Origin: a virus
Taxonomy: Duplodnaviria; Caudoviricetes
Reading direction: 5' to 3' (one strand)
Virus record (IMG/VR): IMGVR_UViG_3300024308_000049
Span: 1-36,023 of that record
DNA length: 36,023 nucleotides
Part shown: one piece after another, positions 8,812-28,195 of the stretch
How the letters are laid out: each line of letters begins with the position of its first letter
Numbering within the stretch: the first letter of the stretch is position 1
Notes under the pieces: generated by a model
Told to the model about the DNA's origin: nothing
What the model saw: only the letters and a program-made list of their open reading frames with translations
Database searches by the model: none
Made by a program: the position numbers and the translations under genes

Positions 8812-9834
8812 TCACACCACCTTGGCGAAGATGAAGGCGTCGGGCTCCAGCAGGGCAGCCAGCGGCGCGGATTGCAGTTTCAGCCAGCGAGCGCTCGGCT
8901 CCGGGGTGACCCAGGATTTCGGGAAGCGACGCGCTTCTACCAGGCCGCTCTCGATGGCATCGAGATCCTGAATGGCGCCGCACAGCACACCGTTACGGGT
9001 ATTGGTGGAACCGAGAATGATGCCGCCCGCGCTGATGATCGGCTGCTCAACCTCCTCGGCATCCAGGTACCACTCGTCGTAGGCATACAGATCGATGCCC
9101 GGATCGTTCAGGTAGCCCAGGTAAGTGACGCCATCCGGCAGCTCTTCGGGCTTGATGATGCCCAGGTCAACACGGCGGGTGTTGAGCATCTTCATCACCA
9201 TGTCGTTGGCCTGGAAGGCGTCGACAGCCTCGGCGCTCATCACACCGACGTTGGCGGTGCGGCCGGAGTCTTTCGCGATCTTGCGCTTCCAGCCTCGCAG
9301 GTTACCGATGGGGTTGGAGCCGGCGGCATCCCACTTACCGGTGGTGAGGGTGATCTTGTGGTCGGATGCCATCAGGAAATCGATGGTGTCATCCACGCCC
9401 TCACCCACCACACGAATCTGGCCGGTGGTCAGCGCCTGGGCGCACATCCACTCTTCACGGCGGGTGATTTCCTCATCCAGCTCAGCCAGATCCTTACCGA
9501 GCTGTTCGGCGGCACGCATGGCCGGCGGCTTGCTGGCGTAGGGGTTCTCACCTGGCGAGCGCTTCAGAATCAGTTCCGCCTCAGTCTCGCGCTTCGGCTG
9601 AATGTAGGGCGGAGTGTAGGTGTCGCTGCGGAAGCCTTCACGAAGGCTGTTGCTGCCGGGCAGGCGCGGGTGAACGAACGGCGCCATCTTGCGCTTGCCT
9701 TTGACGATGTCGATCTCCACCGTCTTGGTCGGGAAGGTGCGACCGGCACGGAAGAAGGTATCCATCAGGAAGCGGCGCGCCGGCTTCATCTGCTCGACGG
9801 CGTCGAGCATGGTACGGGTGTCGAAAATATCCAT
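8812..9834 (-). CDS. Major capsid protein, lambda gpE family
   Basis: 340 aa with MAPFVHP, PPYIQPK, RREEWMCAQAL and C-terminal QSAPL motifs. Confidence 0.95.
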   Translation of the reverse strand: MDIFDTRTMLDAVEQMKPARRFLMDTFFRAGRTFPTKTVEIDIVKGKRKMAPFVHPRLPGSNSLREGFRSDTYTPPYIQPKRETEAELILKRSPGENPYASKPPAMRAAEQLGKDLAELDEEITRREEWMCAQALTTGQIRVVGEGVDDTIDFLMASDHKITLTTGKWDAAGSNPIGNLRGWKRKIAKDSGRTANVGVMSAEAVDAFQANDMVMKMLNTRRVDLGIIKPEELPDGVTYLGYLNDPGIDLYAYDEWYLDAEEVEQPIISAGGIILGSTNTRNGVLCGAIQDLDAIESGLVEARRFPKSWVTPEPSARWLKLQSAPLAALLEPDAFIFAKVV

Positions 9835-17032: not shown

Positions 17033-17068
17033 AACGGCTGCCGCCCCTGCCACGGTAGCGTCAGCCAG

Positions 17069-17096
17069 AAAAGACAAAGCCCCGCAAGGCGGGGCT
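17069..17096 (-). terminator. First late-leader terminator (tR'-like)
   Basis: AGCCCCGC-ctt-GCGGGGCT-TTGTCTTTT on the minus strand. Confidence 0.75.
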
Positions 17097-17176
17097 CTGA
17101 ATCCGAGTCGGGTCTCGGGTTGTGCGACACAGCACGTGGCGCTCTGTTGCTCGGTAGGCGTACCTATCGAATCGTG
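17069..17176 (-). ncRNA. Candidate ~105-nt late-leader small RNA (pR' to tR')
   Basis: Lies between a candidate promoter and a terminator; multi-hairpin; contains CCACGUGCUGUGUCG, complementary to motifs in the early transcripts. Ends are inferred. Confidence 0.5.
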
Positions 17177-17181
17177 GTGAC

Positions 17182-17210
17182 TTTGTACCCCTCGAGTGAC
17201 AAACCGAAAA
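17182..17210 (-). promoter_or_regulatory. Candidate late promoter pR'
   Basis: TTTTCG-17 bp-TACAAA, located between the Q-like gene and the terminators. Confidence 0.4.
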
Positions 17211-17262
17211 GTCCCTTTTATGGGTTATCCCAGCCGGCGCCCTTCGGAGCCTTGCCAGCGCC

Positions 17263-21406: not shown

Positions 21407-21605
21407 GCCGCACCTCCATCAACCCCTGGCAGCTCACGCAAAAACGGCAACCCGGCACTGCTTGGCGCCGGGCTTCGGGAATGTCGTCACCACAGCTGTC
21501 GCACTCGGTCGCGCTCTCGCCCTGGTACACCACACGGTTATCGATGGCCTGCTGCAGGCGCGCCTGCTGGGCCGCTTCAGCCATTTCCAGTACGCGCTCA
21601 TCCAT
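21399..21605 (-). CDS. TraR/DksA C4 zinc-finger protein (PtrB-like)
   Basis: CDSCGDDIPEARRQAVPGCRFCVSCQ. Confidence 0.93.
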   Translation of the reverse strand: MDERVLEMAEAAQQARLQQAIDNRVVYQGESATECDSCGDDIPEARRQAVPGCRFCVSCQGLMEVRRG

Positions 21606-22107
21606 CGTGGCGCTCCTCCCCAGCCAGCATGGCCTGCTCGGCGCCGGCGATGATCGCCAGCACCTGGCGAATCACCTCATGCCCGTGGTGCCGCAGCGCC
21701 ACAACCTCATGCGCCTGCCAAACGTTGTCGGCCGCACCGTCGTGCAGGCTGCCCACGAACTCCCCCTCGCGCTGCAGCAAGTCACCCACCGCCTTCAAGG
21801 CATCGCGGGTCGCCTTCACCGGCACCGGCTTGAACCACACCGCCCCGGCCGGACGCATCAGCGCGTCCAGCAGGCGCGGGTCATTGGTCAGGCGGATGAT
21901 GTCTTCAAGCTCGTCCGGGTTTGGCCAGCGGCGTTCCTCGGTCGGGTTCAGCTTCTTCTGCAGGGTGTCGTAACCCGTTACCAGGTCGAGATGCATATCA
22001 GTGGCCAGGGCGCCAATGCCGCCCCGATGGTCACGCCCGGCGCGGTAAAGCGCGTGGCGCAGGGAGAGCACCGGGCCAGCGCCCGGCAGCAGATCTTGTC
22101 GGCTCAT
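21598..22107 (-). CDS. Phage CII-family regulatory protein
   Basis: YDTLQKKLNP HTH and D.RLLDAL motif; position downstream of cro. Confidence 0.75.
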   Translation of the reverse strand: MSRQDLLPGAGPVLSLRHALYRAGRDHRGGIGALATDMHLDLVTGYDTLQKKLNPTEERRWPNPDELEDIIRLTNDPRLLDALMRPAGAVWFKPVPVKATRDALKAVGDLLQREGEFVGSLHDGAADNVWQAHEVVALRHHGHEVIRQVLAIIAGAEQAMLAGEERHDG

Positions 22108-22117
22108 ACCTACCCCA

Positions 22118-22461
22118 AGCCGGCCCCAGGCGGGGCCGGCTGTTGTGTGCTGTGTCTGCCGAGCTGGGCAGTCAGAGTTGCCCCGCTCGACCCCTTCCGT
22201 GCCGAGGGTCAGAGGCCCCGGCGCGGTTACTACCTAAAACCGCCGTTTAACGACATAGCCAGGCAGCCAGGGTTTCCCCTACTATTCCGGCTACGGCGAC
22301 TCGATGTTTCCACGTGCTGTGTCGGCATCGAGCGTCGTGCGCCTGGCGAGGGGTCAGAGCCTCGCCAGGCACCGGTGCAAGGGGTCAGAGCCTTGCACCA
22401 CCCCGCCCACCTGTGTGTCAGAGCTCAGGTGGGCAACCCGCTGGCCCCTTCGGGGGCCAGC
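22118..22461 (-). ncRNA. Highly structured leader between cro and cII: hairpin array with five CUCUGAC loops and two GACACAGCAC boxes
   Basis: GTCAGAG (+ strand) at 22171, 22208, 22353, 22384 and 22417, each enclosed by a different inverted repeat; GTGCTGTGTC at 22147 and 22314; flanking hairpins at 22118-22141 and 22440-22461. Confidence 0.7.
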
Positions 22462-22523
22462 ACCTTTGAGGGCTTAGCGCCCTCTCTCTCTTTCTGCATC
22501 AACCTGCTTCTGGAGAGAAACCA

Positions 22524-22706
22524 ATGCCTGCTCAACCAGATTTTGCTGCAGCCCTTGCAGCGCTAGACCAAGCGCTGGCTGCATTGCCGCCAACAGCTGT
22601 TGGAGATCAAGAGCCGAAGTTTCGCCTGGACTACCTTCGCTCGATTGAGCAGCTACTGGCTGCCCAGATGCGGATTCACAAGCTTCAGGGGAAATACAAG
22701 CCGTAA
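22524..22706 (+). CDS. Small hypothetical protein, antisense to the PR operon
   Basis: 60 aa helical-looking ORF with GGAGA RBS; competes with the overlapping minus ORF 22474-22755. Confidence 0.45.
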   Translation: MPAQPDFAAALAALDQALAALPPTAVGDQEPKFRLDYLRSIEQLLAAQMRIHKLQGKYKP

Positions 22707-23104: not shown

Positions 23105-23791
23105 ATGAGCAAATACCCCACGATCCCCGAAATACGACACGCCAACCTGCGCCGGGTAATGGACGAGCAGGACATTGGCCCGGCCGAACTCGCTCGCCGA
23201 CTTGGCAAATCACCGAGCCAAGTTGGGCAATTCGCCGGCCCAACTAGATTCAAGGGCATCGGCGATGACGCCGCGCGCGAACTCGAAGAGCTGCTTGGCC
23301 TGGCTCCCTACGACCTAGACAACCCAATCGTATTGCTCGGCCTGAGCACTGCCGAATCCGGTAGCTATCACACGGATGCGACCTTCCAGGCGTACACCAA
23401 GGGCAAGATACCTGTAGTAGGTGTCACAGCGGCAGGAGCTGCAATGGAAGTAATCGACCTCTACCAACCAGGCGTCGCCGAGGAATGGATAGACGCTCCG
23501 AAGAACTACACCCCTGGCTCCTTTATCCTGCGCCTGTCCGGCTTCTCTATGCAGCCTAAGTTTTGGGATGACGACCGCGTGATGATTGAGCCAGCCCTAG
23601 CCTGGTCAGTCGGCGACTTCGTATTCGCTAAGCGTCCAGCCCACGGCGACGGAACCTTCAAGAAGCTGGTAGAAGAAGATGGCCGCATGTTCCTGTTTGC
23701 GCTCAACCCAGACTTCAACCCCCGCTACATTGAAGTGACGCAGGATTGGCACATCGTAGGCAAAGCCACATTCCGGCTAGATAAACTCTAA
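23105..23791 (+). CDS. cI: CI-like repressor (HTH + S24 autopeptidase)
   Basis: N-terminal XRE HTH, Ala-Gly site (TAAG), catalytic Ser (GFSM) and Lys (TFKK). Confidence 0.95.
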   Translation: MSKYPTIPEIRHANLRRVMDEQDIGPAELARRLGKSPSQVGQFAGPTRFKGIGDDAARELEELLGLAPYDLDNPIVLLGLSTAESGSYHTDATFQAYTKGKIPVVGVTAAGAAMEVIDLYQPGVAEEWIDAPKNYTPGSFILRLSGFSMQPKFWDDDRVMIEPALAWSVGDFVFAKRPAHGDGTFKKLVEEDGRMFLFALNPDFNPRYIEVTQDWHIVGKATFRLDKL

Positions 23792-23796
23792 ATAAA

Positions 23797-23839
23797 TACC
23801 CATCAGGTATTTACAAGCATTACCCAACAGCTATAGATT
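23797..23839 (+). promoter_or_regulatory. OL operators and PL promoter
   Basis: TACCcatcaGGTA at 23797, TACCcaacaGCTA at 23821; TTTACA at 23810 with TATAGATT at 23832. Confidence 0.75.
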
Positions 23840-23875
23840 GATCGCGTACCCACACTCTGACCCCCGGAGTACGCG

Positions 23876-24067
23876 ATGCAACAGACACAGCACACATCCG
23901 CCCAGGTGCTCCTGCACCCGGCATGCACCACCAACCCGGACGCCGTCCGCGCTGTTCAGCAGGCCACTGGCCGCTTTGTAGTGCTCGTAGGCGGCCGCCC
24001 CACGCTGAAGCAGCCCCAAACCCTGCCCGCCTTCGAGGACTTCGGCCCTTGGGGAGGCGCAGCATGA
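23876..24067 (+). CDS. First early (PL) gene, hypothetical
   Basis: 63 aa, GGAG RBS within a hairpin, ATGA overlap with the next gene. Confidence 0.75.
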   Translation: MQQTQHTSAQVLLHPACTTNPDAVRAVQQATGRFVVLVGGRPTLKQPQTLPAFEDFGPWGGAA

Positions 24068-24342
24068 GCACCCACAACGAGCACGAACTCAAGGCCTACC
24101 GCGCCCGACTGCTCAGCCTGCTGACGCGGGTTCGCAACGCGCCCGACCTCCCATCGATGGACGCCGACTTCTACATCGTCCTCGGCTGGATCAGCGCCGG
24201 CCACTGCCTGGACGCCATCAGTATCGGCGCAAGTGACAGCCTGCATGATCTGGTACTCAACGCCAGTCAATACCGCTCCGCCGAGTTTGCCCACCAAGCC
24301 GAGGCCCAGCGACTGGCCCGCGCACAGGAGCGTGCAGCATGA
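24064..24342 (+). CDS. Hypothetical protein (MSTHNEHELK...)
   Basis: ATGA-coupled on both sides, GGAGG RBS. Confidence 0.75.
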   Translation: MSTHNEHELKAYRARLLSLLTRVRNAPDLPSMDADFYIVLGWISAGHCLDAISIGASDSLHDLVLNASQYRSAEFAHQAEAQRLARAQERAA

Positions 24343-25181
24343 CCTACGCCCTTACCCCAATGTCCGCCCGCGCTATTGGCGTTTTGCTGAACGCCGGCGG
24401 CGGCTCCGACGCGATCCTGCTGCGCCGCCCCGAGAGCGAACTGCGCGCAGAACTGCACATTGAACGCTGCGGCCGCACCCTCACGGCCACCATCCTGCTC
24501 GGCCATCAGCGAAGCAGCCTGACACTGCAAGATGGTGACGGCGCCAACCAGCTGAACCTGGCCGAGCAGATCGAAGCCATCGCCAACGGCACAGCCGACA
24601 CCGCCGAAACCGGCGCGATCGGCACCCCGGCCACGCTAAAAACCTGCTGCAAGTGCGGCGGCGAGGCCATCGGCTACGACTACGCGATACCCGGCACCGA
24701 GTATCGCCACGGCGTGAAGTGCCGGCACGGCGACTGCCAGGCGGTCGAAGGCGCCACCACGGCGGACGAAGCCCATGCCGCCTGGAACCGCATCCAGGCC
24801 GAGAAGCTGGACGAGCCCACCGCCCATCCCGCCGACATGGTCAACCACCCTCCGCACTACAACGGCCACCCCTCTGGCCTGGAGTGCATCGAGGTGACCG
24901 AGCTGCTGCCGTTCAACCTCGGCAACGCTTTCAAGTACGTGTTCCGCCACCGTAGCAAGAACGGCCGCGAGGATCTGGAGAAGGCCCGCTGGTACCTCAA
25001 CCGCGAACTGGAGCGCTGCGAGCGCGGCGGCATCAGCATCGGCTACCTGCAGGCCACCCACGCCCTGGCCGGCCGCATCGCCGCGCACGAACCGTACCCG
25101 GTTGGCGCTGCGCTGGTGGCGATTGCCGCCGACGAGCCAGCCGAAGCACTGCACTGGATCGAGCACCTGCTCGCAGCCTGA
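24339..25181 (+). CDS. Mosaic protein: Lar-like zinc ribbon plus DUF3310 domain
   Basis: CCKCGGEA...C..GDC...AWN; DMVNHPPHY...FNLGNAFKYVFR...KNGREDLEKARWYL. Confidence 0.8.
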   Translation: MTYALTPMSARAIGVLLNAGGGSDAILLRRPESELRAELHIERCGRTLTATILLGHQRSSLTLQDGDGANQLNLAEQIEAIANGTADTAETGAIGTPATLKTCCKCGGEAIGYDYAIPGTEYRHGVKCRHGDCQAVEGATTADEAHAAWNRIQAEKLDEPTAHPADMVNHPPHYNGHPSGLECIEVTELLPFNLGNAFKYVFRHRSKNGREDLEKARWYLNRELERCERGGISIGYLQATHALAGRIAAHEPYPVGAALVAIAADEPAEALHWIEHLLAA

Positions 25182-25191
25182 GGGCCACGCC

Positions 25192-25476
25192 ATGAACCGC
25201 ACCGTGAAAGAGGCCGCCCAGGTACTGGGCATCGCCGAGAGCCAGCTGCGCGCCCACCTGCGCAGCATCAACGCCCTCAACCGCGACGGCACCCTGGCAG
25301 CGCGCCACATCGGCGGCGGCAAGCTGTTCATGGATCCGCGCGTGACCACTATCAAGCGCATCGGCATCCGCAAGCACTACGCCCCAGTGATGGTCACCGA
25401 AGCCGGCATTGACTGGCTGGCCAAGCAGCTCGGCATCGCCATCACCGAACTCCCGGCAAAGGACAGCGCCGCATGA
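25192..25476 (+). CDS. Antirepressor KilAC-like domain protein
   Basis: TVKEAAQVLGI...VMVTEAGIDWLAK; ATG 25192. Confidence 0.75.
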   Translation: MNRTVKEAAQVLGIAESQLRAHLRSINALNRDGTLAARHIGGGKLFMDPRVTTIKRIGIRKHYAPVMVTEAGIDWLAKQLGIAITELPAKDSAA

Positions 25477-25850
25477 ACAAGCCCAACCCAATCGCCGACG
25501 CCATCGGCGTCGTCAAGCTGGCCAGCATGCACCACGCCAACCCGGGCACCGTCAGCGCCGCCACCGTGCGCGACGCTGCAGACGAATGCATCGAGCGCCT
25601 GCAGGGCATTCCGCCCCAGGCGCTGGAGCTGGCCGCACTGTACTGCGCGCTGTTCGCCCTGCTGCCGAACCGCTGGCTGCCCTACGTCACCCTCACCGGC
25701 GACACCGAGCGCCCGTTCGGCGCGGTGATCACCGACGAAGCCGGCAACATCGCCGCCACCACCATCGGCAAGAGCGTCGAAGGCGTCACCGCAATCATCG
25801 CCGCCAAGCTCAGCCACCCCACGGCGGGGTGCGGGGAGGTGGTGCAGTGA
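25473..25850 (+). CDS. Hypothetical protein
   Basis: 125 aa, overlaps genes on both sides. Confidence 0.75.
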   Translation: MNKPNPIADAIGVVKLASMHHANPGTVSAATVRDAADECIERLQGIPPQALELAALYCALFALLPNRWLPYVTLTGDTERPFGAVITDEAGNIAATTIGKSVEGVTAIIAAKLSHPTAGCGEVVQ

Positions 25851-26086
25851 GCAACACGTTCGAACTGCTCCAGCAGCGCCACAAGGCCAACAGCCTACCG
25901 CTGGATGAAGTGCGCGCCGAGTACTTCTCGCACATCAAGACGGAGAAGCGCCTGCGCCACCTCATCCGCACCGGTGAGGTGCAGCTGGCCACCTTCAGGA
26001 TATCCGATTCGCGCCTGGCGCCGCTGCACGTGCGCCTGGCCGACCTCGCCGCCTACCTCGACGCTCGCGCCGAGCAAGCGGCTTAA
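25847..26086 (+). CDS. Pyocin activator PrtN-family protein
   Basis: GTG 25847 with GGAGG RBS; NTFELL...LPLDEVRAEYF...SRLAPLHVRLADLAAYLD. Confidence 0.82.
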   Translation: MSNTFELLQQRHKANSLPLDEVRAEYFSHIKTEKRLRHLIRTGEVQLATFRISDSRLAPLHVRLADLAAYLDARAEQAA

Positions 26087-26137
26087 CCCCCGCGCCCGGC
26101 GGCACCGGGCAATTCTCTGACAACCGAGGCACAGCAC

Positions 26138-26482
26138 ATGAAACCCACTGACAGCTCCGACTTCATCCAGTCCCTCAACGCCGGCGTCTTCGCCGAGCAG
26201 TTCGGCCGCGCCCTATCCGACGTCGCCGCTGGCGTGGTCGACCACGGCAAGGAAGGCACCGTAACCCTGACCTTCAAGCTCAAGCAGATCGCGCAGACCA
26301 ACCAGGTGAACGTGACGCACAAGCTCGACTTCTCGCAGCCCACCAAGCGCGGCAAGAAGCGCGAGGACACCACCCTCGACACCCCGCTGTATGTCACCCC
26401 GGACGGCCTGCAGTTGTTCCAGACCAACCCGACCGATCAGCTCTTCCGCAAGGAAGACACGCCCGTTCACGCGCGCAGCTGA
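26138..26482 (+). CDS. YfdP-like phage protein
   Basis: 114 aa with VAAGVVDHGKEG.VTLTF and TPLYVTPDG motifs; the usual partner of DUF2303. Confidence 0.75.
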   Translation: MKPTDSSDFIQSLNAGVFAEQFGRALSDVAAGVVDHGKEGTVTLTFKLKQIAQTNQVNVTHKLDFSQPTKRGKKREDTTLDTPLYVTPDGLQLFQTNPTDQLFRKEDTPVHARS

Positions 26483-26542
26483 TCACCCCGAACCGCAACA
26501 CAGCACCACCTAACCATCCTTACTCTGACAAGGACTACAACG

Positions 26543-27334
26543 ATGTTCGATCACAAAGCACTGGAAACCCTTAACGCCCAGGCCGTCGCAGCCGCCAACG
26601 TGCGCATTGAGCATGGCGGCAGCACCCTGGCCGTTACTCCGGCGAGCTGCACGCTCACCAATCTGGAGCCCTACCAACTCTCGCGCGACCGCTTTCGCGG
26701 CAACCTGAACACCCACTCGCTGAAAGCCTTCGCGGCCTACGTCGAGCGCCACATCGGCGGCGAAGACGACAAGGGTGCATCTGGCTTCGTCGATCAGGAC
26801 GCCATGCGCGCCACTGTCATCTTCAACCTGGGCACCCCGGACGATGCCGGCCATGGCGACGACCGCGCCACCCTCACCCTCAAGCCCACCGCTGCCTACA
26901 AGGCACTCGCCGAGGTGGTCGGCCGCTCTCTCAGCCAGCAGCAGTTGGCCGAGTTCCTCGAGGACTGGGCGCCGCACATCACCGCCATCAACGTTGTGCG
27001 TCGCATGCAGATCAAGGCCACCTCGGAGCTGAACAGCGAAGTCGGCGACATGAGCAACCGCCGCAGCGCGATGGAAGAGATCGAAGCGCGCAGCCTCGAA
27101 ACCCTGCCGACCACCTTTGTGTTCAGCACCAAGCCCTACGACCCGCTGAGCGTCGCCGACATCACCCTGCGCCTGTCGGTGATCACCGGCGACAAAGCCC
27201 CGGTGCTCAAGCTGCGCTGGGTCGGCCAGGAAGCGCAGCAAGAAGCCTTCGCCGAAGAGTTCCAGCAGGTGCTCGAAGGTGAAATCGGCGGCCTGCTGCC
27301 GCTGACCATCGGCACCTACCAGCAAGGCCACTAA
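26543..27334 (+). CDS. DUF2303 (YfdQ family) protein
   Basis: R.RFRG, VIFNLG..D.AGH.D and AEFLEDW motifs. Confidence 0.88.
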   Translation: MFDHKALETLNAQAVAAANVRIEHGGSTLAVTPASCTLTNLEPYQLSRDRFRGNLNTHSLKAFAAYVERHIGGEDDKGASGFVDQDAMRATVIFNLGTPDDAGHGDDRATLTLKPTAAYKALAEVVGRSLSQQQLAEFLEDWAPHITAINVVRRMQIKATSELNSEVGDMSNRRSAMEEIEARSLETLPTTFVFSTKPYDPLSVADITLRLSVITGDKAPVLKLRWVGQEAQQEAFAEEFQQVLEGEIGGLLPLTIGTYQQGH

Positions 27335-27397
27335 GCCCCAACTCCCTGCGCCAGAGACTCTGACCCCTGGCGCAGGGCACCAACGGAGACACAGCAC

Positions 27398-28195
27398 ATG
27401 ACCGTTTCACACATCACCCTCGCCGTTATCGGCGCGCTCGCCATCATCGCGCTGCTCGGCCTGGCCTGGCTGGCCTACGTCAACGCCGAAACCGCCCGCA
27501 CCAATGGCTATGACCAAGGCTACGGCGACGCCCGCAAGGCAGCCGCCGACTACACCACCAGCCTCGAAGGGCAACTCGCCAACTCCGTGGGCCGCTATGC
27601 CAAGGCCAAACGCGAGCATGACCAGCAACTGCAGGACGCCGACCGCCGCATCGCCATCTACGCCGGCCGCAGCTACACCCGCGACGAGCTCACCAGCATC
27701 CGCCGCGCAGCCAAACAGCTCAAGCTGGCAGCCCTGACCTACAGCCAACTCAGCACCAACCAGGTGCTGGAGCTGAGCGACCAAGCGCGCCACGCCCTCA
27801 CCGTATGCGGCGAACTGGAGCAGATCGCCCAGCGCATCGAGGATCAGCTCGAAGGCACCGCCCCGACCGCACTGCCCAATACCCAGCAAGAAGCAGAAGC
27901 CGCCCTGCTTGAAGCGGCTGCCTTCGCCGCTGGCGTACCCAACGGCAAAAGCTGGCTCGTCTACGGCCCCGAAGGCTGCGGCAAAACCACCAACGCCCAG
28001 GCCATCGCCGACGCACTCGGCCTGACGGAGATCGTTGACGACTGGCAGCCAGGCGACCCCGCGCCGATCACCAAAGCCCTGGTGCTGACCAACCACCTCG
28101 GCCCCGACTTCCCGCCCTTCTACCGCCGAGCCCTCTCGTATGAGCAGGCCATGTCGCTGGTTGCCGCCAAGGCCAAGCCGGGGGTGGCAGCATGA
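27398..28195 (+). CDS. Membrane-anchored coiled-coil protein with C-terminal P-loop domain
   Basis: N-terminal TM helix; LVYGPEGCGKTT...IVDDW. Confidence 0.7.
   Translation: MTVSHITLAVIGALAIIALLGLAWLAYVNAETARTNGYDQGYGDARKAAADYTTSLEGQLANSVGRYAKAKREHDQQLQDADRRIAIYAGRSYTRDELTSIRRAAKQLKLAALTYSQLSTNQVLELSDQARHALTVCGELEQIAQRIEDQLEGTAPTALPNTQQEAEAALLEAAAFAAGVPNGKSWLVYGPEGCGKTTNAQAIADALGLTEIVDDWQPGDPAPITKALVLTNHLGPDFPPFYRRALSYEQAMSLVAAKAKPGVAA

Follow-up and report, generated by a model that had tools for sequence, protein, structure and literature searches.

The window analysed here, that is, the whole stretch of 36,023 nucleotides recorded as IMGVR_UViG_3300024308_000049, is a single 36-kb contig of a lambdoid Pseudomonas-type prophage (Duplodnaviria; Caudoviricetes). 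Two short words, B (CUCUGAC) and A (CACAGCAC), recur at translation starts of its early PL operon, and their complements, anti-B (GUCAGAG) and anti-A (GUGCUGUGUC), fill hairpin loops of a predicted small RNA between the cro and cII genes. The minus strand carries the late genes, the Q-position gene, the primase gene, a DksA-like gene, cII and the cro-position gene, and the plus strand carries cI and the 17-gene PL operon; the nearest named relatives of the CII protein are found in Ectopseudomonas and Pseudomonas genomes. The features of the early region are listed below (SD, Shine-Dalgarno sequence).

21598..22107, minus strand: gene for a cII-like activator of the Phage_CP76 family (Pfam PF06892, E 4e-14; PHROG 101)
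22232..22285, plus strand: promoter-like element at the position of the promoters PRE (lambda) and pE (186), with inverted repeat 22232-54, -35 TAGCCA 22256-61 and -10 TACTAT 22280-85
22293..22467, plus strand: predicted small RNA of ~175 nt, non-coding, with five hairpins, between cII and cro
23105..23791, plus strand: gene for a cI-like repressor (PHROG 4, Pfam S24)
23810..23839, plus strand: PL promoter-like site TTTACA-18-TAGATT, weak (1 match against 1.3 expected by chance)
23841..23893, plus strand: site (a), first PL gene; stem 23841-49/23869-77 over SD and AUG, B in the loop at 23855-61, A-type GACACAGCAC at 23884-93
26115..26140, plus strand: site (b), yfdP-like gene; B 26115-21, A-type GCACAGCAC 26129-37, ATG 26138
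26498..26545, plus strand: site (c), DUF2303/yfdQ gene; ACACAGCAC 26498-506, TCCTT-A-B-AAGGA 26517-34, ATG 26543
27344..27400, plus strand: site (d), next gene after yfdQ; 11-bp stem 27344-77 with B loop, GACACAGCAC 27388-97, ATG 27398

Paired words at early starts and a predicted small RNA

The four paired sites lie where the original prediction had placed them, every coordinate agreeing. At site (a), B forms a perfect 10-nt match to the small RNA at -21..-12 relative to the AUG and A falls in codons 3-6 (+8..+17), and at site (b) the SD is flanked by B (-23..-16) and A (-8..-1). At site (c), B (-20..-13) sits in a 5-bp hairpin that pairs the SD and the poorly conserved A lies at -45..-37, and at site (d) the B loop spans -40..-30 and A lies between SD and AUG (-10..-1). 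The PL region (10,071 nt, 17 mapped genes) has 5 intergenic gaps, almost all other genes overlapping their upstream neighbour; four of these gaps exceed 50 nt and coincide with the four sites, the fifth measuring 10 nt, in agreement with the claim that the words occupy nearly all sizeable gaps of the operon.

In a strand-aware enrichment analysis, it was the placement of the words that proved unusual, each word alone being only modestly enriched over shuffled sequence. Word B occurs 9 times in the whole window, where shuffled sequence averages 4.6 copies and reaches 9 in 6 of 100 shuffles; word A likewise occurs 9 times, with an average of 2.9 after shuffling and the observed count reached in 1 of 100 shuffles. 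All eight sense copies in the PL region fall inside start windows that make up 14.3% of it (~2e-7, a post hoc value that treats matches as independent), and four B-A pairs no more than 40 nt apart were observed, compared with a mean of 0.005 and a maximum of 1 in 1000 Markov simulations. Start windows containing a word belong to five of the 43 mapped genes (the four sites and cII), all of them early and none late, so that the regulon described in the original prediction as genome-wide was drawn too broadly; its narrower content, post-transcriptional control of early genes by words that most likely act as RNA at translation starts, is upheld by the conservation and fixed strand of the words in relatives.

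Seven minus-strand copies of the words lie at 22147-22423. The earlier view that orientation simply flips with transcription on either side of cI holds for those at 22147, 22171 and 22208, which look like sense targets, but the remaining four (A at 22314; B at 22353, 22384 and 22417) are better read as antisense loops of the plus strand, in a unit with its own plus-strand promoter-like element. Further plus-strand A copies occur at 8981 and 20070, both antisense inside coding genes, and at 17128 in the late leader. As the trans-acting factor, which the original prediction left unnamed, a phage small RNA is more probable on this evidence than a protein.

The predicted RNA (22293-22467) folds into a row of simple hairpins at -110.6 kcal/mol. 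The loop of hairpin 1 is anti-A GUGCUGUGUC (22314-23), three hairpins present anti-B loops GUCAGAG at 22353, 22384 and 22417, and a closing hairpin (22440-61) with a cUUCGg loop is followed by a tail of three U. Across nine close-relative sequences, 14 of the 57 consensus pairs change on both sides around fixed loops, which indicates a structure formed by a single strand. Perfect loop-to-site complementarity reaches 8-11 nt per site, most sites lying at -23 to +17 and all of them within about -45 to +17 of the AUG, and the two loop flavours in the window fit its two site flavours, GGGGUCAGAG with (a) and (d) and UGUCAGAG with (b) and (c).

Directly 3' of the small RNA lies an open reading frame (ORF) of 60 aa with its own ribosome-binding site (22524-22706, plus strand), which matches no family and is 98% identical in the related locus L115; other small ORFs take its place in phage LPPA56 and in L105/L107. 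This position is possibly a moron slot that uses read-through from the small RNA.

In the openly accessible literature, searched also for its analogues and for YfdQ, we found no description of the small RNA, although strain catalogues of small RNAs held in supplements could list it unnamed; E. coli yfdQ-T is reportedly the subject of one published study. The accessible parts of a 2025 review of phage small RNAs (PMC12197685), including the whole of its Table S1, contain no such Pseudomonas prophage RNA, and those of PMC12360218 and PMC7067206 contain nothing on it.

Joint change of loops and sites in related phages

To the window we compared 117 loci fetched via CII and DUF2303 and a further six from cultured phages. 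Word counts by loop type, taken from 57 distinct loci that extend 4 kb or more upstream of cII, followed the loops. In the PL regions of phages with GUCAGAG loops (n = 15) we counted 55 sense CTCTGAC, 3 antisense copies and 5 CTCTCAC, whereas those with GUGAGAG loops (n = 36) held 111 CTCTCAC, 4 antisense copies and 1 CTCTGAC. Both words have changed in the four phages with GUGGUGGG loops, whose PL regions hold 12 CCCACCAC and whose A loop, GGUUGUGU, accompanies 7 ACACAACC and no CACAGCAC. Locus L111, with other DNA in the cro-cII gap, has one B and no A in its PL region.

Seven B-loop types are represented among the 46 loci that allowed placement of the RNA together with one or more orthologous starts, and the matrix of loop type against site type is near-diagonal. 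At the first PL gene, the cognate B was present in 42 of 43 loci and a non-cognate B in none, the lone miss (LPPA56) still retaining a 7-nt match, and an A-type word was present in all 43. The yfdP-like gene of site (b) has an A-type word in 25 of 29 loci and the cognate B in only 8; for yfdQ at site (c) the cognate B is present in 27 of 29 and A in only 4; and the gene at site (d) has the cognate B in 24 and A in 26 of 29. Twelve DUF2303-found loci from one close clade, nine of which include the gap, display two other loops; their sites match these loops in the sense orientation, and antisense copies are absent. On the CII tree, the seven seed types require seven changes and four of them are single-locus, so that independent evidence for covariation amounts to about seven events and not dozens.

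In two loci from cultured phages, L121 and L122 (PG1 and pAN), the opening codons of the first PL gene contain tandem repeats of A, and the gap RNA of PG1 has a loop with an extended repeat matching this tandem A.

Two leaders on the minus strand also contain the words or their complements.

22147..22214, minus strand: cII leader, holding three further likely targets (an A and two B hairpins), restricted to the window's clade and near clades
17065..17225, minus strand: late-promoter leader, with the inverted repeat of the promoter-like element again at 17203-25, an anti-A copy at 17126-35 and an intrinsic terminator at 17075-99, one of two terminators in the region

Substitutions in the cII-leader stems, read on the plus strand, comprise 1 G-U against 17 A-C and so favour the minus strand, that of the cII mRNA, with the limit that the stems are not independent; in locus L008 the leader's B becomes CTCTCAC together with the loops of its RNA. 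The strand that these stems favour makes cII a probable fifth target within the window's clade. A minus-strand leader peptide starting from a GTG after A in the gap was considered and rejected, the codon being lost in L001 and the frame shifted in L005 and L006.

On the strand that is transcribed, the late leader holds A in its antisense form, and the anti-A seed (G)UGCUGUG recurs in 45 of 53 distinct loci. This leader may be a second guide RNA or the site of a CII-repressed late promoter. No further anti-A copy was found when the window, which lacks part of the phage, was searched elsewhere for a second antisense source, of wobble type, for A. As a partner for B, the late leader was rejected, since its UCAGAG (17095-100) belongs to the terminator stem and stays unchanged in L008 and L009, where B changes. 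The inverted repeat of the late leader is followed by TACAAA and CACGAT, which we take to resemble the -10 and the pause element of lambda PR'. L090 and L117 lack the late-leader seed, and A sites are missing from the PL regions of L117 and L089, the gap of the latter being nearly the same as that of L090.

Promoter-like element, strand and expression

Among 89 loci with a placed cII start, a pattern scan picked 60 distinct promoter regions. In all 60, TAnnnT follows a TAGCC-type hexamer at 17 nt (46) or 18 nt (14) across a spacer of variable sequence, and in 45 of the 60 an inverted repeat is symmetric at six or more of seven positions, its outer triplets lying near -57 and -39. In phages of the window's clade, where a leader of 125 nt lies between cII and the promoter-like element, the repeat keeps its place at the promoter, which suggests a DNA operator. 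The repeat at 22232-54 is a candidate CII operator, and the cII-like protein (21598..22107) is a candidate activator of the small RNA's promoter. We take the CII of phage 186 to belong to PF06892, the Pfam family of the window's CII. The 186 protein binds an inverted repeat at -38/-58 of pE (accessible text of PMC6593788), a spacing close to that found here; the element also shares with pE its convergence with the lytic promoter and its placement just upstream of cII. In the accessible text of that paper, the pE transcript is not described as having a structured guide RNA at its 5' end. An operator-like inverted repeat at 26258-26280 (plus strand) within the yfdP-like gene ranked second in a scan that was partly circular, being trained with the window's half-sites, and is possibly a chance match.

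Expression was approached through assembled contigs from four RNA-seq runs of one study on a related prophage. Summed contig depth over 22297-22404 was ~7,600-35,000, compared with 36-117 over most of the prophage and 0-908 in the promoter bin. Cover begins at 22303-05, just past the predicted plus-strand start, and is low over the promoter, and adapter-bearing contig ends fall at 22303-15 and 22403-06. We attempted to read the strand from these adapters; both presumed adapter types occur at the left end and the attempt gave no strand. A UUCG or CUCG tetraloop is present on the plus strand in 13 of 13 loci, and loops of this type stabilise RNA. Transcription of the small RNA from the plus strand is inferred from the promoter-like element, the start of the RNA-seq cover, this tetraloop and the antisense A of the late leader. 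A second RNA-seq pile covers the cII leader (22148-22277); runs X14 and X16 have it at high depth, and X15 and X17 show little or none of it, the gap RNA remaining constant.

Proposed antisense repression, rival explanations and known systems

The A and B words are likely to be binding sites of the predicted small RNA at 22293-22467, which would keep ribosomes from loading at the PL operon's four fresh starts. CII would activate the PRE-like promoter, and the 5' part of the transcript would accumulate as a stable hairpin array; its loops would pair with the A and B words, two of them to a start, and block the 30S subunit. Given that nearly all other PL genes overlap their upstream neighbour, four closed starts would silence most of the operon because translational coupling to the downstream genes is lost, an effect to which Rho polarity possibly adds. 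Towards the PR transcript, the RNA would be fully antisense along the cro-cII stretch, and in the window's clade it would match the cII leader as well. Its net effect would be to aid the establishment of lysogeny and to keep cI read-through out of the early operon; the latter role is suggested because the end of cI lies 50 nt ahead of hairpin (a), both on one strand, and a terminator scan found no terminator-like site between them.

Several observations weigh against this reading. The CII-type inverted repeat is degenerate in the window's own clade, the U tail of the small RNA is only three long, and the terminator scan made no call there, although a weak terminator would permit the read-through to cI that PRE requires, and to the ORF at 22524. 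The RNA-seq signal fades at ~22406, 60 nt short of the predicted RNA end, and the contig pile-up is no more than a hint, in that contigs give no strand, ends or level and DNA was possibly present. Wobble tests lent no plus-strand support to the stems of the B hairpins of the RNA (30 G-U against 30 A-C) or to its A stem (13 against 6, p 0.17), and for the PL target stems on the mRNA strand the balance was opposite to that expected (10 G-U against 25 A-C). Mismatches in the predicted duplexes were 12 of G-U type and 10 of A-C type, A-C being commoner per opportunity. Strong stems close the B loops in both the RNA and its targets, so that pairing would be a kissing contact of ~8 nt. Finally, covariation by itself fits antisense pairing and a single protein reading the same word on two sense strands alike.

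Such a protein, phage N-like or of the host, would recognise the B loops and the A words on the sense strand in each of the two early transcripts, with the cro-cII cluster as a nutR-like or decoy array in the PR transcript and the plus-strand promoter as PRE for cI. Constant loops on variable stems would suit protein operators, the B-stem wobble tests gave no plus-strand preference, a promoter is expected at the PRE position regardless, and we take the cro-cII cluster to lie at the lambda nutR position and site (a) at that of nutL. We nevertheless consider this explanation unlikely, since seven B types with 8-13 nt of loop-site identity would require seven protein specificities, the late leader bears the reverse complement of A, and RNA cover starts directly after the plus-strand promoter. 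The first PL protein (start 23876; 63 aa; PHROG 13491, unknown; no Pfam) contains three scattered Arg and no arginine-rich stretch, and its Atlas look-alikes, all hypothetical and below 0.9, are uninformative. In the nut sites (boxA-boxB) that serve N in lambda, a hairpin-loop word and a linear word follow PL and cro, the loop sequence being phage-specific. Here, rather than one site per early promoter in an untranslated leader and an arginine-rich-motif antiterminator in the first PL gene, the sites, four in PL, overlap SD or AUG and return at internal start codons; the words have an exact antisense copy, and no basic protein resembling N was found. By these comparisons the feature does not qualify as a nut system. 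Between phages with different seeds, shared PL proteins are 92-100% identical, except for the first (75-77%) and an HD hydrolase (63%), and cI is unrelated, a comparison that is not decisive.

Pairing might instead activate some sites, by opening the SD hairpins at (a) and (c) or by antitermination, making the small RNA a timing switch and not a brake. At both of these sites B lies in the loop of an SD-hiding stem, the conserved stem of (a) covaries across phages, and IsrK of Gifsy-1 activates by refolding its target (accessible text of PMC4825925). This appears improbable to us, as A occupies the interval from SD to AUG at (b) and (d), at (a) it falls in codons 3-6, and the A loops of many relatives show complementarity to the AUG itself; a duplex at such positions should obstruct the 30S subunit, and a CII-type promoter implies a pro-lysogeny role. 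Least probable is that the words are cis-only translation enhancers, C/A-rich and start-associated, or DNA sites, with incidental copies in the gap. The leaders are indeed C/A-rich, A is more widely conserved than B, and the late copy can hold a short palindrome; that palindrome, however, is not conserved (L005, L048), PL copies are almost exclusively sense, stems compensate around fixed loops, and an enhancer would have no reason to change in step with loops 1.5-5 kb away.

Repression by such an RNA has precedents among temperate phages, and on our analysis the feature is best read as a phage antisense immunity RNA, akin in working to P1 c4 and P4 CI RNA and not a member of the Rfam C4 family. 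In c4 RNA, which folds in a cloverleaf-like manner and is matured by RNase P, two short exposed seeds pair with the target words a1b1 and a2b2. As in c4 of P1 and P7 (RF01695), seeds here vary between phages, and anti-A and anti-B loops match paired words, A and B, at four PL starts and in the cII leader. The Rfam C4 model gave no C4-type match in the window up to E 5, nor in five related loci at the gathering threshold. According to the accessible text of PMC8198154, c4 represses ant and supports lysogeny beside a protein repressor; our comparison also draws on the accessible text of PMC2864571. Whereas c4 lies in the same operon as icd and ant, inside the transcript it regulates, the small RNA has its own promoter-like element at the PRE position and its PL targets lie beyond cro and cI, 1.4-5 kb away; its family is a train of two to six independent hairpins with repeated seeds, matching four or five starts up to 5 kb away.

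The P4 CI RNA likewise pairs with two stretches of complementary sequence, seqA and seqC, and shuts the early operon in the lysogen, Gifsy-1 IsrK being a structural relative of seqA (accessible text of PMC4825925). CI is processed from the transcript it controls and causes termination, whereas in the window the guide is a unit apart from its targets, which overlap ribosome-binding sites. Antisense RNAs also act at the cII switch in lambda (OOP, aQ and PRE) and P22 (sar); aQ and PRE are CII-driven and sar blocks translation initiation (accessible text of PMC12197685). These are fully complementary to one target, in contrast to short repeated loop seeds addressing many starts, and OOP lies 3' of cII, the small RNA 5' of it.

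More tentatively, the system may be a programmable multi-guide RNA repressor within the lambdoid switch: a CII-driven modular hairpin array, perhaps with a second anti-A RNA from the late leader sharing its operator, whose exchangeable loops silence every fresh PL start and, in this clade, feed back on cII. The seed types, at least seven, would then be CI-independent RNA immunity groups, widespread in Pseudomonas prophages including the cultured Turba, Lodos, LPPA56, KT1, PG1 and pAN. The lambda-type lysis-lysogeny switch has been treated as a protein circuit, and the cro-cII gap as the home of nutR, tR1 and PRE. If this reading holds, a large group of Pseudomonas temperate phages places a CII-wired multi-target antisense RNA in that gap and controls its early operon by closing only the non-coupled starts, and seed types would lead one to expect allele-specific cross-talk among co-resident prophages, together with a second layer of superinfection immunity. 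A modular loop-guide RNA would also be of interest for synthetic gene control. The window adds the target-side map, the cII-leader sites and the late-leader seed with its shared repeat.

Other observations concern neighbouring genes. The gene run 3' of site (a) includes KilAC-like and PrtN/excisionase-like genes (25192-26086, plus strand), of which the KilAC-like gene (25192-25476) has a weak Pfam ANT match (E 1e-4, below the cut-off) and no site of its own. The DUF2303 gene is ~12 codons shorter in the window than in close relatives, and the RNA contigs contain 31 additional letters near 26982-26986 (window positions 26960-27010). In phage LPPA56, an Rfam RT-15 RNA was detected on the minus strand (L118:646-836, E 1e-41).

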